Virus record (IMG/VR): IMGVR_UViG_2579778535_000019
DNA from: a virus
Lineage: Duplodnaviria > Heunggongvirae > Uroviricota > Caudoviricetes
Reading direction: 5' to 3' (one strand)
Length of the DNA: 3,976 nt
The notes below the pieces were generated by a model. The model saw only the letters and a program-made list of their open reading frames with translations, had not been told where the DNA came from and did no database searches. Both the position numbers and the translations under genes were made by a program. Every line of letters begins with the position of its first letter. The first letter of the stretch is position 1. This document shows positions 1 through 3,976 of this stretch, piece after piece.

Positions 1-156
1 CGCGCTGCACTGATACGGCTGCAGACGACAACCTTCGTAATCGGCAATCAGTTTCAGCCCCTCCACGGAGGTGTGAAGCTGCTGAAAACCCGGCAGCGTG
101 GCAGCAATAGCCAGCACGGCCCCGACAAGGCAGCGTTTAACGATTGATGGATTCAT
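1..156 (-). CDS. Phage endolysin, SAR-type lysozyme (T4-lysozyme-like fold, P1 Lyz-like); N-terminal 52 codons only, 3' end lies beyond the window start
   Basis: ATG at 156-154 on the minus strand, preceded by GGGAGGA (159-165). Translation by hand: MNPSIVKRCLVGAVLAIAATLPGFQQLHTSVEGLKLIADYEGCRLQPYQCSA. Ala/Gly-rich weakly hydrophobic N-terminal segment followed by the E-G-C ... P-Y-x-C motif characteristic of SAR lysozymes with a caging cysteine. Not in the ORF track because it is truncated by the window edge. Confidence 0.75.
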   Translation of the reverse strand, partial: MNPSIVKRCLVGAVLAIAATLPGFQQLHTSVEGLKLIADYEGCRLQPYQCSA

Positions 157-352
157 AGTCCTCCCGCGAGATCTGCCCGTCGCGCAGAAGCTGGTAGGCT
201 TTGTGTTTGTAGTACCAGTTGATAGCCAGCATCAGCACACCAATCATCAGGCCGCCCAGCGTTGAGGCATCCTTGATGGACAAATCGCCCAGCCAGGCCA
301 GCACGACGGCGATGCAATACGTGATAAAGGCGCTGATTCGCTCAAGCGTCAT
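137..352 (-). CDS. Small class II holin (possible pinholin), 71 aa, two predicted transmembrane helices and a charged C-terminal tail
   Basis: ORF track 137..352; ATG at 352-350. Two hydrophobic stretches (ISAFITYCIAVVLAWLG and LGGLMIGVLMLAINWYY) followed by KHKAYQLLRDGQISREDYESINR. Lies between tail gene X and the endolysin, where P2-like phages carry the holin; its 3' end overlaps the endolysin start by about 20 nt. Confidence 0.65.
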   Translation of the reverse strand: MTLERISAFITYCIAVVLAWLGDLSIKDASTLGGLMIGVLMLAINWYYKHKAYQLLRDGQISREDYESINR

Positions 353-355
353 AAT

Positions 356-559
356 TCAGTCCCATAGCTGGACGGTCTGCACGGTGGTGGTGGTCGGAAT
401 GTCCGGCAGCTCCACCTGCAGCCCGTGAGGTAAAAAGGGGCCATATTCGGCAAGCCCCGGATTTGCCTTCAGTACCTGCTCCGTGACACCCTGCGTGCGC
501 CCGTAATGACGCCAGCAAAGCGCGTCCACCGTGTCATACTGATGCGCACGCACTTTCAT
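356..559 (-). CDS. X: Phage tail protein X (P2 gpX family, LysM-like), 67 aa
   Basis: ORF track 356..559; ATG at 559-557 with a GGAG upstream. Sequence MKVRAHQYDTVDALCWRHYGRTQGVTEQVLKANPGLAEYGPFLPHGLQVELPDIP... matches the remembered gpX pattern (…D.LC.RYYGRT.GV.E.VL.ANPGLAE.G..LPHG..VELPD…), and 67 aa is the expected length. Its start overlaps the L stop (TGATG). Confidence 0.85.
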   Translation of the reverse strand: MKVRAHQYDTVDALCWRHYGRTQGVTEQVLKANPGLAEYGPFLPHGLQVELPDIPTTTTVQTVQLWD

Positions 560-1023
560 CAGATAAGCTCCACTGTGCAGTGCGGCGCATCCTGCACCCG
601 GCGGATGGCCCAGCGGGCGTCACGCCACAAATCACCGCTGGCTTCTGCCAGTTCTTCGCCTCGCTTCACACCGGATGCCGTGGCGTCATAGTCCTGGTAT
701 CGTTCGTTGAGCATGGCGCGTGCCCAGCAGTAAACCGCATTGAAATAGTGCTGAATGCGCTCACTTTTGCCGTCCAGCTGCTCCGACGGAACCTCTGCCA
801 GCGAGGCATATCCCAGCACCTGCTGGCGTCTGCGAAACTCATACAGCTCTGCGTTGACCTCCGAAATTGCCGACAGCGCAACCTGCTTTAAACGCGGCTG
901 CGTCACCGTGCCGTCAGTGCGCATGACACTGCGAAACTCCGACAGGTCCACATCAGGCCAGAACGGCGTGTTTCTGATGATTTCCGCCTGTTCCGGTGCC
1001 TGTTCTGGCGCAACAAACTTCAT
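559..1023 (-). CDS. L: Phage head completion/stabilization protein (P2 gpL family), 154 aa
   Basis: ORF track frame 559..1086, but the likely start is the internal ATG at 1023-1021, which has a strong SD (AGGAGA, 7 nt spacer) and begins MKFVAPEQ. It sits immediately upstream of and translationally coupled to X, as gpL does in P2-like phages. The 21-codon upstream extension starts at a GTG with no SD. Confidence 0.65.
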   Translation of the reverse strand: MKFVAPEQAPEQAEIIRNTPFWPDVDLSEFRSVMRTDGTVTQPRLKQVALSAISEVNAELYEFRRRQQVLGYASLAEVPSEQLDGKSERIQHYFNAVYCWARAMLNERYQDYDATASGVKRGEELAEASGDLWRDARWAIRRVQDAPHCTVELI

Positions 1024-1089
1024 GCTGCTTTCTCCTGAAATAGAGGGCGGTGGACGGGGTTTTGATGTGGCAGTGCCTTTCGCCACCCC

Positions 1090-1112
1090 GTGCCGCCCGT
1101 GCGCGGGGGCAC
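1090..1112. other. GC-rich imperfect hairpin (9 bp stem with one bulge, 4 nt loop) in the region between the cII remnant and L
   Basis: GTGCCGCCCG tgcg CGGGGGCAC read directly from the sequence. No adjacent U-tract on either strand, so it is not a canonical intrinsic terminator. Confidence 0.3.
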
Positions 1113-1240
1113 GTTCTGTCAGCGGCTGTCATTGCGCAGTCTGCGCTCCAGCTGCTGTTTGTCTTTTTTCACGCCACAGCGGGGATCGAGCTGTAACGCA
1201 TGGTTGAGATGATTAAGGGCGGAAGCCGGGTTGCTTTCAC

Positions 1241-1579
1241 TCAGGATACCGCACCTGCAGCAACACGCCCGATCTCTGCGGTTGCACTCATGACGTAATG
1301 TGACAGTTTCTCTTTTGCCACCTCATTAATCGGTACACATGGCAGACAATGAATCTGTGCCAGAAAACCATCTACCAGCGTTGAATCTTCAGTCAGATCG
1401 GTAAGCAGCCAGATTTCTGGTGCGGTTAATAGATGAGGCTGAGCTGGGTTCAGCTTGTTCCGCAGAATCTGCACATTCATGCCTGCACGTTCTGCCAGTT
1501 GCACCAGATTGTGGCGCAGTGCAAATGCACGACAGGCTTCATCAAAATGTGGATGTTTGGAAACTTGGTAATCAAACAT
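1241..1579 (-). CDS. cII: Phage regulatory protein CII-like (186 CII / CP76 family), apparently C-terminally truncated (112 aa)
   Basis: ORF track 1241..1585 begins at TTG; the likely start is the ATG at 1579-1577, giving [49 protein letters not shown]... with an HTH-like segment. It is the second gene of the operon after the Cox/Apl-like gene, as in phage 186. Phage 186 CII is about 169 aa (established knowledge), so this copy appears shortened. Confidence 0.65.
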
Positions 1580-1611
1580 GGTCAATGCCTCTGATGTATT
1601 TCAGAATCGAA

Positions 1612-1833
1612 CTAATTAAGGTTTAGATTGCATTCTGAAAGCGCATCAACGGTCATGGCTGCTATGTTGATCATCACTTTTTCGCGTTTTTTATCTTTGC
1701 GCAAACGGTGACGGATAAGGCGTCCGTCAGCCAACATGTCATTGATGGTATCGATGGACAGCCCTGTCAGCTCGCTATAGCGCTCAATAGTCACATGAGG
1801 CGTGGTAAGAGTGATTGAAATGTTAGGTCTCAT
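1612..1833 (-). CDS. Cox/Apl-like small DNA-binding protein (excisionase / repressor of the lysogenic promoter), 73 aa
   Basis: ORF track 1612..1833. First gene of the leftward operon, divergent from the repressor gene. Its size and the central segment [28 protein letters not shown] resemble the Cox/Apl winged-helix family, and the position matches cox (P2) / apl (186). Confidence 0.6.
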
Positions 1834-1958
1834 GATGCAACATTCCTCGTTTAATGATGATTAATCAGGACGAATACGGATCGTTTGTATTTTGTGAACA
1901 CCATAAACATACGATCGCACAATGAAATCGTCAAGATAAAAGTTCACTTGGAGTGACC
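1834..1958. promoter_or_regulatory. Lysis-lysogeny switch region between the divergent cox/apl-like and cI-like genes
   Basis: 125 bp AT-rich intergenic region. Contains a direct repeat ATACGGATCG (1874-1883) / ATACGATCG (1908-1916), two GATC sites, and an imperfect inverted repeat around 1888-1912 (GTATTTTGTG ... CATAAACATAC). Confidence 0.5.
1906..1934 (-). promoter_or_regulatory. Candidate sigma70 early lytic promoter (pR/Pe-like) reading leftward toward cox/apl
   Basis: On the minus strand: -35 TTGACG (1934-1929), 17-nt spacer, -10 TATGTT (1911-1906). Predicted start near 1899, giving a leader of about 65 nt before the cox/apl ATG at 1833. The second copy of the ATACGATCG repeat overlaps the -10. 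Confidence 0.4.
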
Positions 1959-2528
1959 ATGAATTTGGAGAAAGGCGGACGAGGCGCTATAGAGCGCATG
2001 GTAGAAGCTTATGGATTCAAAACTCGACAGGCGTTGTGCGATCATTTAGGAATCTCTAAAAGTACACTCGCCACACGCTACATGCGTGACTCATTCCCAG
2101 CAGAATGGGTAATCCAGTGCGCCCTTGAAACGGGCACCTCGCTTAATTGGCTCACAACCGGACATGGTTCAAAGCAAACTTCAGGTAATACAAATACTAT
2201 GGAAGTTGCTAAATATGTATTATCTGATGGTGCCTTGCGTGAAGACGGTTTTTATATTTTTGATAAGGGATTTTTACCCTCTACGTTTAAAAAACCTTTT
2301 GTCATCACAGATAACAATTCTGAATTTATTTGTGATAAAGAATTTGATGATATACGTGATGGTAAATGGGTAATAAGTATTGATGGCGAAGTAACGATCC
2401 GTGACATTACTCGTTTACCCGGTGGAAGAATCTTCGTCGAGGGTGGAAACAGAGCCTTCGAATGTAAGATAGAAGACATTGAAATAATTGGTAAAATTAT
2501 AAGTTTAACAGTCAAGTATGTTAAATAG
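1959..2528 (+). CDS. cI: Phage CI-type repressor (186 CI-like: N-terminal HTH domain plus C-terminal oligomerization domain), 189 aa
   Basis: ORF track 1953..2528 begins at GTG; the likely start is the ATG at 1959 with GGAG 5 nt upstream. The N-terminal segment ERMVEAYGFKTRQALCDHLGISKSTLATRYMRDSFPAEWVIQCALETGTSLNWLTTG fits the 186 CI-type HTH domain. Length is close to 186 CI (192 aa), and the gene is divergent from cox/apl and upstream of int. Confidence 0.8.
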   Translation: MNLEKGGRGAIERMVEAYGFKTRQALCDHLGISKSTLATRYMRDSFPAEWVIQCALETGTSLNWLTTGHGSKQTSGNTNTMEVAKYVLSDGALREDGFYIFDKGFLPSTFKKPFVITDNNSEFICDKEFDDIRDGKWVISIDGEVTIRDITRLPGGRIFVEGGNRAFECKIEDIEIIGKIISLTVKYVK

Positions 2529-2543
2529 TACCGGGAGGAAACT

Positions 2544-2735
2544 ATGCTTGGTAAGGTATTTTTTGTGGTTTTGTCATGTTCTTTGTTATTAAACCCACTA
2601 ACTACCTATGCTAGAAATTATCCCTGCTCAGGGAAAAAGGGAGGTGTTTCTCACTGTACCTCAGATGGCAAATTCGTTTGCAATGATGGAACTATTAGTA
2701 AATCCAAAAAAATCTGTACTAAAAACTCACGATAA
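2544..2735 (+). CDS. Small secreted cysteine-rich protein of unknown function (63 aa precursor; predicted signal peptide, ~40 aa Lys-rich mature part with 4 Cys)
   Basis: ORF track 2544..2735. Strong SD GGGAGG 5 nt before the ATG, 15 nt after the cI stop. N-terminus [23 protein letters not shown] has n/h/c signal-peptide architecture with a T-Y-A cleavage motif; mature part [40 protein letters not shown]. Lies in an AT-rich segment. Confidence 0.5.
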
Positions 2736-2923
2736 CTTTTGCTTTTATATCTGCGTCTAAAATAAAAATGAGCCGCAGGTTAACCGCAAAAGTTACATGC
2801 TCACATAGCAAAAAGAATAGCCAACTTCATTATGGCTTCAGTGAGATGTATGGTCGTAGGATTTCATACATTGACACTGGTTATACATACAGTAAAAATG
2901 CTCTCTACTGGAGGGCATTTTTT

Positions 2924-3976
2924 ATGGCAGTACGAAAACTCACCACAGGGAAATGGCTTTGCGAATGTTACCCCGCCGGACGAAGTGGGCGTCGTGTGCG
3001 TAAACAATTCGCCACCAAAGGCGAAGCTCTGGCTTTTGAGCGTCACACTATGGAAGAAACCGAATCAAAGCCATGGCTGGGCGAATCAGTGGATCGTCGA
3101 ACCCTGAAAGACGTGGTTGAGCTATGGTTCAAACTACATGGTAAATCTCTGACTGCTGGGCAGCATGTCTATGACAAATTGCTGCTGATGGTTGACGCTC
3201 TGGGCAATCCTCTTGCAACCGATCTCACCTCTAAAATGTTTGCCCACTATCGAGATAAACGCCTGACAGGCGAGATCTACTTCAGCGAGAAATGGAAGAA
3301 AGGAGCAAGCCCGGTCACCATTAACCTGGAGCAAAGCTATCTAAGTAGTGTTTTTAGCGAACTATCCCGTCTGGGCGAATGGGCGTATCCGAACCCACTG
3401 GAGAACATGCGAAAATTCACCATCGCAGAAAAAGAGATGGCATGGCTTACCCATGAGCAGATTGTTGAATTACTGGCTGATTGCAAACGTCAGGACCCAA
3501 TTCTAGCACTGGTAGTTAAGATATGCTTAAGCACAGGCGCACGCTGGCGAGAAGCCGTAAATCTTACTCGTTCACAGGTGACCAAATACCGAATTACCTT
3601 TGTAAGAACGAAGGGGAAGAAAAACAGAAGTATCCCTATCAGTAAAGAGCTTTACGAAGAGATCATGGCGCTTGATGGGTTCAATTTCTTCACAGACTGC
3701 TATTTTCAATTTTTATCCGTGATGGAAAAAACGTCTATCGTGCTCCCTCGCGGTCAACTCACACACGTTCTGCGCCATACGTTTGCGGCGCACTTCATGA
3801 TGTCGGGTGGAAACATTCTGGCCTTACAAAAAATTCTCGGACACCACGATATAAAAATGACTATGCGTTACGCACATCTGGCACCGGATCATCTGGAAAC
3901 GGCGCTCCGTTTCAATCCTCTGGCAACGCTGCCAAGTGGCGACAAAGTGGCGGCAGCGGTTGGCATTACCCCGTAA
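2924..3976 (+). CDS. int: Tyrosine site-specific recombinase / phage integrase (P2-type), 350 aa
   Basis: ORF track 2768..3976, but homology-like sequence begins at MAVRKLTTGKWLCECYPAGRSGRRVRKQFATKGEALAFE (ATG at 2924, GGAGGG 7 nt upstream). C-terminal catalytic signature present: ...STGARWREA..., HVLRHTFAAHFMMSGGNILALQKILGHHDIKMTMRYAH with the R, H-x-x-R, H and Y residues. Stop TAA at 3974-3976 is exactly at the window end. Confidence 0.9.
   Translation: MAVRKLTTGKWLCECYPAGRSGRRVRKQFATKGEALAFERHTMEETESKPWLGESVDRRTLKDVVELWFKLHGKSLTAGQHVYDKLLLMVDALGNPLATDLTSKMFAHYRDKRLTGEIYFSEKWKKGASPVTINLEQSYLSSVFSELSRLGEWAYPNPLENMRKFTIAEKEMAWLTHEQIVELLADCKRQDPILALVVKICLSTGARWREAVNLTRSQVTKYRITFVRTKGKKNRSIPISKELYEEIMALDGFNFFTDCYFQFLSVMEKTSIVLPRGQLTHVLRHTFAAHFMMSGGNILALQKILGHHDIKMTMRYAHLAPDHLETALRFNPLATLPSGDKVAAAVGITP

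Follow-up and report, generated by a model that had tools for sequence, protein, structure and literature searches.

A defective P2/186-type prophage remnant between rcdA and ybjL of Escherichia coli and its recurrent deletion endpoints

Among the closest known systems are two coliphages and one chromosomal remnant. Coliphage 186 (NC_001317) has a switch composed of cI, apl, cII (169 aa when full-length) and fil, which is of the same type as that of the element considered here, while P2 (NC_001895) has the late gene order M-L-X-holin-K...D-ogr/B, to which that of this element also belongs. The chromosome of E. coli K-12 carries a cryptic P2 remnant, with ogrK and the gene D fragment yegZ, next to attR. 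In the literature, no description was found of the locus reported below or of recurrent deletion endpoints in P2-type prophages. Here, we analyze a window of 3,976 nt (the whole stretch of DNA under study), which is very probably the larger part of a defective P2/186-type (Peduoviridae) prophage remnant of about 5 kb, shaped by large deletions. That is, the element is an ordinary, heavily eroded cryptic-prophage remnant of a known kind, the remnant of a member of the family and not a functional member.

The genes of the window were mapped based on six-frame ORFs and Pfam. The minus strand, read from right to left, contains an apl/cox-type gene, a CII-family ORF, L, X, an HP1-type holin gene and an endolysin fragment, and the plus strand contains cI, a 63-aa YdcA-family gene and a tyrosine integrase gene. 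The features are as follows.

1..156, minus strand: 5' fragment of an endolysin gene (lysozyme, P2 K-like), with ATG at 156-154 and 52 codons inside the window
137..352, minus strand: intact holin gene, 71 aa (Pfam PF16080 Phage_holin_2_3, E 4e-9)
356..559, minus strand: intact gene of tail protein X, 67 aa (Pfam PF05489 Phage_tail_X, E 2e-34)
559..1023, minus strand: intact gene of head completion protein L, 154 aa (Pfam PF05926 Phage_GPL, E 2e-50, full profile)
1024..1118, no strand: M-L intergenic spacer, phage-normal (collinear, 98-99.6% identity with intact phages and prophages)
1119..1246, minus strand: 3' remnant of the terminase endonuclease/small-subunit gene M (similarity to intact phages; mapped through the intact prophage of E. 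coli PSJ-12)
1245..1246, no strand: deletion junction with GA microhomology, TC on the gene strand (three-way alignment; BLAST against PSJ-12)
1241..1579, minus strand: truncated cII, residues 1-112 of 169 (Pfam PF06892 Phage_CP76, profile positions 1-110 of 146)
1612..1833, minus strand: intact apl/cox-type excisionase and repressor gene, 73 aa (position; Cox annotation in phage vB_EcoM-813R9)
1834..1958, no strand: putative divergent switch region (pR/pL type) between apl and cI (analogy with the annotated pR/pL of 186)
1959..2528, plus strand: intact gene of the CI immunity repressor, 189 aa (Pfam PF07022, PF16452; RefSeq WP_001047327.1)
2544..2735, plus strand: YdcA-family cargo gene between cI and int, 63 aa with a hydrophobic N-terminus (PF27300 YdcA on an identical contig; RefSeq 'YdcA family protein')
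2924..3976, plus strand: intact tyrosine integrase gene, 350 aa (Pfam PF24624, PF00589)

The endolysin fragment was assigned by its match to the lysozyme gene of intact relatives, in which the holin is annotated as 'HP1 family phage holin'. The apl/cox-type gene has no Pfam match; its role is read from the map of 186, according to which it would be the first gene of the early lytic operon, and a simple scan gives a promoter-like site upstream of it on the minus strand (1934..1906). The stop codon of the integrase ends with the final base of the window, and attL and then rcdA come next on the contig. Both hallmarks of the family are present. The Peduoviridae late gene order M-L-X-holin-endolysin is 97.6-99.6% identical to, and collinear with, Peduoviridae genomes and prophages, and the 186-type switch consists of cI and the divergent apl-cII beside the tyrosine integrase (Pfam CI_repr, CI_C, CP76, Int_N, Phage_integrase), in an order that agrees with the annotation of 186. 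There are zero Rfam matches within the window. The M-L spacer (1024-1118, minus strand) is GC-rich, with a predicted fold of -39.9 kcal/mol that is marginal compared with shuffles (z = -2.0); it is conserved in intact phages and has neither a terminator-like T run nor an Rfam match. Between cI and int there is a slot for variable cargo, which is occupied by the YdcA-family gene here and by a 1.7-kb DUF4041/'chromosome segregation ATPase' gene in phage vB_EcoM-813R9 and strain L6-21 (L002 5308-6984; L010 1029-2705).

Then, where are the early operon and the late genes joined? The CII-like ORF runs from 1579 to 1241 on the minus strand and encodes 112 aa from ATG (114 aa from an upstream TTG in the ORF listing), and L runs from 1023 to 559. 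The gap between them comprises 217 bp (1024-1240), and the coordinates in the preliminary description of this DNA, with a cII stop at 1241, an L start at 1023 and about 215 bp between them, are therefore right. The junction, however, is not in this gap, which had been described as free of ORFs. The apparently empty gap is ordinary phage DNA, namely the M-L spacer and the in-frame 3' end of M, and it is the final codon of the truncated cII that contains the break. Here, at 1245/1246, a microhomology of 2 nt connects cII codon 112 with M codon 175. Codon 112 of cII straddles the junction and remains Ser, and the stop codon TGA at 1243-1241 comes from M-derived sequence. The remnant of M has lost its start codon and retains 2 nt of codon 175, codons 176-216 (41 codons) and the stop codon at 1121-1119. 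The fusion formerly assigned to the interval 1087-1243 is real, while the breakpoint itself is two bases outside that interval.

The position of the breakpoint is supported by the similarity on its two sides. Window positions 1-1252 match the M-L-X-holin-endolysin region of Peduoviridae phages (Cartapus, Klebsiella phage 4LV2017 and others) with 97.6-98.2% identity, and the M-L-X-holin side is also present in about 975 E. coli genomes with identity of up to 99.6%; the similarity to Cartapus, 4LV2017 and these genomes stops at 1246-1252. Positions 1237/1245-3976 match int-cI-cox-cII, and the same split of the similarity is seen across E. coli genomes. When the window is aligned together with intact copies of M and cII, the switch falls inside the GA at 1245-1246, and BLAST against the intact PSJ-12 prophage gives the segments 1-1246 and 1245-3976. 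Alignment to complete relatives, which had been proposed as a check, consequently places the end of the M-L similarity at 1246 and the beginning of the cII similarity at 1245. A full-length cII would span the window equivalent of 1070-1579. The CII copies of E. coli that are 100% identical at the DNA level have 169 aa, as do 108 of the 120 best matches among 979 database homologues, these 120 being only near-full-length proteins. Since full-length CII has 169 aa, 112 aa as a natural length is ruled out; the protein is indeed short, as had been noted, and close relatives do not normally have a CII of 112 aa.

The intact prophage of E. coli PSJ-12 occupies the same ybjL/rcdA site and has 14,401 bp between the two sequences that meet at the junction. 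This bears out the proposal of a large internal deletion that removed the rest of the early operon together with the replication and head genes. According to the PSJ-12 annotation, the lost interval contains most of M, the genes N, O, P and Q, the cos region, a variable accessory block, a DinI-like gene, the replication endonuclease gene A, dam, a TraR-like gene, DUF2732, DUF5347 and fil, and it ends in the last 57 codons of cII. Replication gene A was lost together with its origin. The accessory block in PSJ-12 holds a reverse-transcriptase gene, and the DinI-like gene is taken to be, by analogy, the counterpart of Tum of 186. The region from Q to the DinI-like gene differs in every relative examined, with genes for a reverse transcriptase, a SieB-like protein, an RNA-binding-domain protein or hypothetical proteins (L005 25684-29810, L012 3906-5327, L013 4386-6651, L019 7010-8588), and it is entirely gone from the window element.

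A chimeric contig that joins two parts of an intact prophage could in principle give the same picture, as junctions with an overlap of 2 nt can come from mis-assembly. The junction, with both sides adjacent, occurs in none of 5,426 complete E. coli genomes, and the exact junction 27-mer has zero matches in the GTDB representative genomes and JGI metagenomes, collections that are sparse for E. coli strains. However, the exact 112-aa CII is recorded on 33 contigs of up to 195 kb (NCBI, ENA and Logan assemblies), each of which bears the label E. coli; they come from independent sources and assemblers. Three fetched contigs, one of them from a metagenome assembly, show 100% identity to the window, two over its whole length of 3,976 nt and the third over an overlap of 2,469 nt, and two fetched contigs carry the flanking chromosome on both sides of the 5-kb element. 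Since the exact 112-aa product needs this junction, its presence on 33 independent contigs excludes, for practical purposes, an assembly artefact, to which we give hardly any credence; the junction is genuine. Its absence from the 5,426 complete genomes indicates that it is confined to a minor lineage.

A second deletion junction is found 2-3 nt beyond the left end of the window, where endolysin codon 53 passes into the last 757 nt of gene D. On L006, the contig identical to the window, this junction is at 11583/11584, and window position 1 corresponds to 11579. The junction forms the palindrome GCGGGTACCCGC, and its microhomology is a single T. Compared with PSJ-12, it removes about another 14.4 kb, which begins with the rest of the endolysin gene and the spanins, continues through R, S, V, W, J, I, H, G, FI, FII, E, T and U, and reaches into D, whose 5' third is lost. 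The fibre genes and the invertase are part of this stretch. The D fragment is followed by ogr and then by ybjL on the window-identical contigs. The whole element of about 5 kb is thus composed of int, ydcA, cI, apl, cII(1-112), the M stub, L, X, holin, the K stub, the D stub and ogr; it is located between rcdA and ybjL on the E. coli chromosome and still bounded by att repeats (core repeat AACAAAAAACCCAT, L006 7516-7529 and 12725-12738). The integration target of the phage is a terminator-like hairpin in the interval from rcdA to ybjL, and a hairpin is rebuilt at attL.

The element is therefore recognized as a defective prophage by its truncated genes, which have full-length counterparts in collinear intact relatives (cII, 112 of 169 aa; M, 41 of 216 codons; K, 53 codons; D, 757 of 1101 nt), and by its att-bounded position at the site of the phage. 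The preliminary description was correct in calling the prophage defective, with its immunity/integration module kept, but not in supposing that the tail and lysis genes had been kept as well, in view of the second deletion and the endolysin stub. Likewise, the block that it saw joined to the early operon is L-X-holin-endolysin as described, except that only a 5' fragment of the endolysin gene, cut after codon 53, is present. On the contig left of the window, where tail genes had been expected, the second deletion has removed all of them; Q, P, O and N are absent as anticipated, and M is present only as a stub. Neither replication nor capsid genes were found elsewhere in the element, and the components of a complete viable genome (A/ori, cos, Q P O N M and the tail genes) are absent from both the window and the full contig L006.

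The preliminary description had also considered a tailocin-like or satellite-like element. A naturally compact functional element, either a tailocin with a tail and lysis cassette or a P4-like satellite, would accord with the presence of an ogr/delta-type activator, an integrase, a repressor and a holin, and yet it is extremely improbable. The sheath, tube, baseplate, fibre and tape-measure genes are all absent, and there are no tail genes between holin and ogr on L006 or L008, where what remains is X and the D fragment together with the truncated endolysin gene. The gene list of the whole element contains no satellite functions (cos, primase/helicase, capsid-size or helper manipulation genes) and no complete endolysin gene, and cII, M, K and D are visibly truncated copies of intact phage genes. 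On these grounds the tailocin-like or satellite-like alternative is excluded.

Both junctions of the remnant can most probably be attributed to RecA-independent illegitimate recombination, because the microhomologies are only 2 nt (GA) and 1 nt (T). As judged from its gene content, the remnant should be unable to replicate, to be packaged, or to build heads or tails. CI is intact, so that CI-mediated immunity to superinfecting homoimmune phages is probably retained, and Int and Apl may be able to excise the remnant. Loss of the DinI-like gene, if this is the Tum counterpart, would mean that SOS can no longer induce the remnant on its own. CII(1-112), which is without the C-terminal third, is probably inactive as a lysogeny activator. 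In addition, the first deletion would have taken away the late promoter upstream of O and set L, X and holin directly downstream of the CI-repressed early lytic promoter. In a simple scan, the minus strand from 1241 to 1023 is free of terminator-like sites, and with L-X-holin in this position, de-repression of CI is predicted to cause transcription of the holin gene.

Such an arrangement raises the question of whether the remnant is a selected domesticated module, which would combine CI immunity with killing by the holin when an incoming antirepressor inactivates CI, in the manner of abortive infection. The int, cI, apl, L, X, holin and ogr genes are all intact ORFs, the stretch between cII' and holin is free of a terminator-like site, and an independent remnant elsewhere has converged on int-cI-apl-cII'/D'-ogr (a slash marks a junction or break throughout). 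However, intact ORFs would be expected anyway if the deletions are recent, as the identity of 99-100% to intact relatives suggests, and the lineage is rare. The related minimal remnants described below are without L-X-holin, so that the block is dispensable, and since these are the closest remnants, a selected "suicide" role is unlikely. We therefore consider domestication improbable, and plain decay by deletion remains the preferred reading of the element.

The endpoints in cII and D are also found in other remnants, so that the two junctions may not be two independent random deletions from an intact ancestor. Remnants at this locus share a nucleotide-identical D breakpoint (...TA/CCCGCCGTG) in combination with at least seven different partners, and the cII breakpoint (GCGGTA/) recurs with at least five. 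The sequence abutting the breakpoint is ...GGTGCGGTA on the cII side and CCCGCCGTGAAAA... on the D side; the D end was compared in L001, L006, L009-L016 and L023, and the cII end in window 1245-1247, L009-L011 and L017-L019. D' is joined to A' in L9, EC-07 and an IMG/VR contig, to cII' in EC06, A134_1EC, L6-21 and ET896, to terminase-L' in 2017.11.01CC, to T' at a first position in MB06234 and at a second position in the IMG/VR contig L015, to an intergenic site beside an acyltransferase gene in the metagenome contig L014, and to K' in the window lineage. The partners of cII' are D' in the EC06 type, FI' in SF10 and HL15, U' in ETEC1706, an accessory region in the IAL7250 group, and M' in the window element. 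All the compared joins have a microhomology of 1-4 nt. A degenerate pattern of the D end, built to pass over intact D, matched one metagenome contig and two IMG/VR contigs but none of the genome contigs, and two new partners were among the matches. All types of junction are rare, with cII'/D' present in 4 and A'/D' in 2 of the 5,426 complete E. coli genomes.

In E. coli G3/10 (probiotic-associated; L004 8001-8900), small inverted fragments of L, O and N are located between T and the early genes, which indicates rearrangement as well as deletion at this locus. ET896 has a further deletion of 291 nt inside its D fragment. At another locus, near ypjA, CAVP773 (L022) carries a P2-type remnant with another integrase and the same int-cI-apl-cII'/D'-ogr architecture.

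Why should the same endpoints recur? Tentatively, the cII and D breakpoints could be non-random, at fragile or recombinogenic sites of one family of P2/186-type prophages that give nucleotide-identical endpoints, including the 30-kb cII'/D' deletion across allele backgrounds. If this is true, an unrecognised site-specific break or recombination activity would drive the decay of prophages to a minimal int-cI-apl...ogr remnant. Sequence-determined hot spots, GCGGTA/TC in cII and GAATA/CCCGCC in D, at which a broken end would join any available microhomology, are a possible though doubtful explanation of this kind, by which the window element would result from two events, from the cII site to M and from K to the D site. 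The D end (/CCCGCC) with its many partners, the cII end with at least five, and microhomologies of only 1-4 nt are consistent with hot spots. So is the occurrence of the cII'/D' junction in at least three allele backgrounds, for which the nearest SNPs are at -47/-57 nt on the cII side and +23 nt on the D side; EC06 (L009), L6-21 (L010) and ET896 (L023) share the identical junction and have different cI/int alleles. The T'/D' junction, moreover, is found in a PSJ-12-like D allele.

However, no enzyme or motif was found for either site, and every example comes from a single chromosomal locus. The breakpoints of the CAVP773 remnant differ (cII' of 357 nt, D' of 948 nt) although its D-site sequence is identical, which points to convergence on an architecture and not to universal hot spots. 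Several candidate activities were considered and rejected. The annotated nick regions of P2 (GCGCCTCGGAGTCCTGTCAA) and 186 for the rolling-circle A protein resemble neither breakpoint site, and a scan of the intact prophage gave no ori-like copy of the D site inside A. Integrase action at secondary att sites does not fit either, as the att core AACAAAAAACCCAT is unlike both breakpoint sites. Comparison by eye gave no fit to Chi, Xer/dif, Hin/Gin-type invertase sites, IS ends or type III restriction spacing. Finally, the cII and D sites as inverted copies of one recognition sequence match at 10 of 18 positions, with an empirical p of about 0.007-0.03 before multiple-test correction, which is too weak a similarity after it.

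Alternatively, though by no means probably, one ancestral minimal remnant (int-cI-apl-cII'/D'-ogr, as in EC06) may be the source of both fixed ends. The larger variants would then be products of one-sided homologous recombination, in which related intact phages or prophages were the partners, combined with an illegitimate join where heterology begins, and homologous recombination between variants would have contributed, and the L-X-holin block would have been re-acquired and not left behind. The EC06-type junction has precisely the recurrent cII endpoint on one side and the recurrent D endpoint on the other, and the window element equals this junction plus a 1.25-kb M'-L-X-holin-K' block that is inserted between GGTA repeats. 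Among the variants examined, D is intact in those that have the fixed cII end (SF10, ETEC1706), and cII is intact in those that have the fixed D end (L9, IMG/VR L016), as one-sided homologous repair predicts, and the three blocks of the element differ in their identity to PSJ-12 (99.7%, 99.1% and 96.7%). However, each illegitimate join would have to hit the old junction exactly, which homology-facilitated illegitimate recombination does not guarantee. In addition, the EC06-type junction and the D end carry different alleles within 23 nt of the break, and the 5,426 complete genomes contain no intermediate with only one of the two junctions of the window.

Taken alone, the element is one more example of prophage decay, whose use is a correct annotation: cII is a pseudogene, M, K and D are stubs, and there is no tailocin. 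The part worth following up is the recurrence, with at least 12 remnant architectures at one E. coli locus that have the same two breakpoints. If it is due to a mechanism rather than to ancestry, the locus would be a tractable system for the stripping of prophages by bacteria to an immunity-plus-integrase core.

Compared with known systems, the element is closest to the intact prophage of PSJ-12 (NZ_AP027622.1, 1348612-1382424), which has the same integration site and gene order and is 99.7% identical to the window from int to cII' and 99.1% identical from M' to K'. The PSJ-12 prophage has the full length of about 34 kb, of which the window element has lost two stretches of 14.4 kb each, one from M codon 175 to cII codon 112 and the other from K codon 53 to D. 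Unlike 186 and P2, the window element has a YdcA cargo gene and is no viable phage, and its integrase and att site differ from theirs; 186, for example, uses tRNA-Ile instead of the intergenic terminator between rcdA and ybjL. The P2 remnant of K-12 is also decayed and keeps ogr and a 3' D fragment, but it is at another locus, with another D breakpoint and without an immunity or integrase module. The minimal remnant of EC06, A134_1EC, L6-21 and ET896 is at the same locus and has cII and D breakpoints identical to those of the window element, and the flanks in EC06 and A134_1EC are 100% identical to it. The difference is the 1.25-kb M'-L-X-holin-K' block, which the minimal remnant does not have; deletion of this block between the two GGTA repeats would convert the window type into the minimal one.
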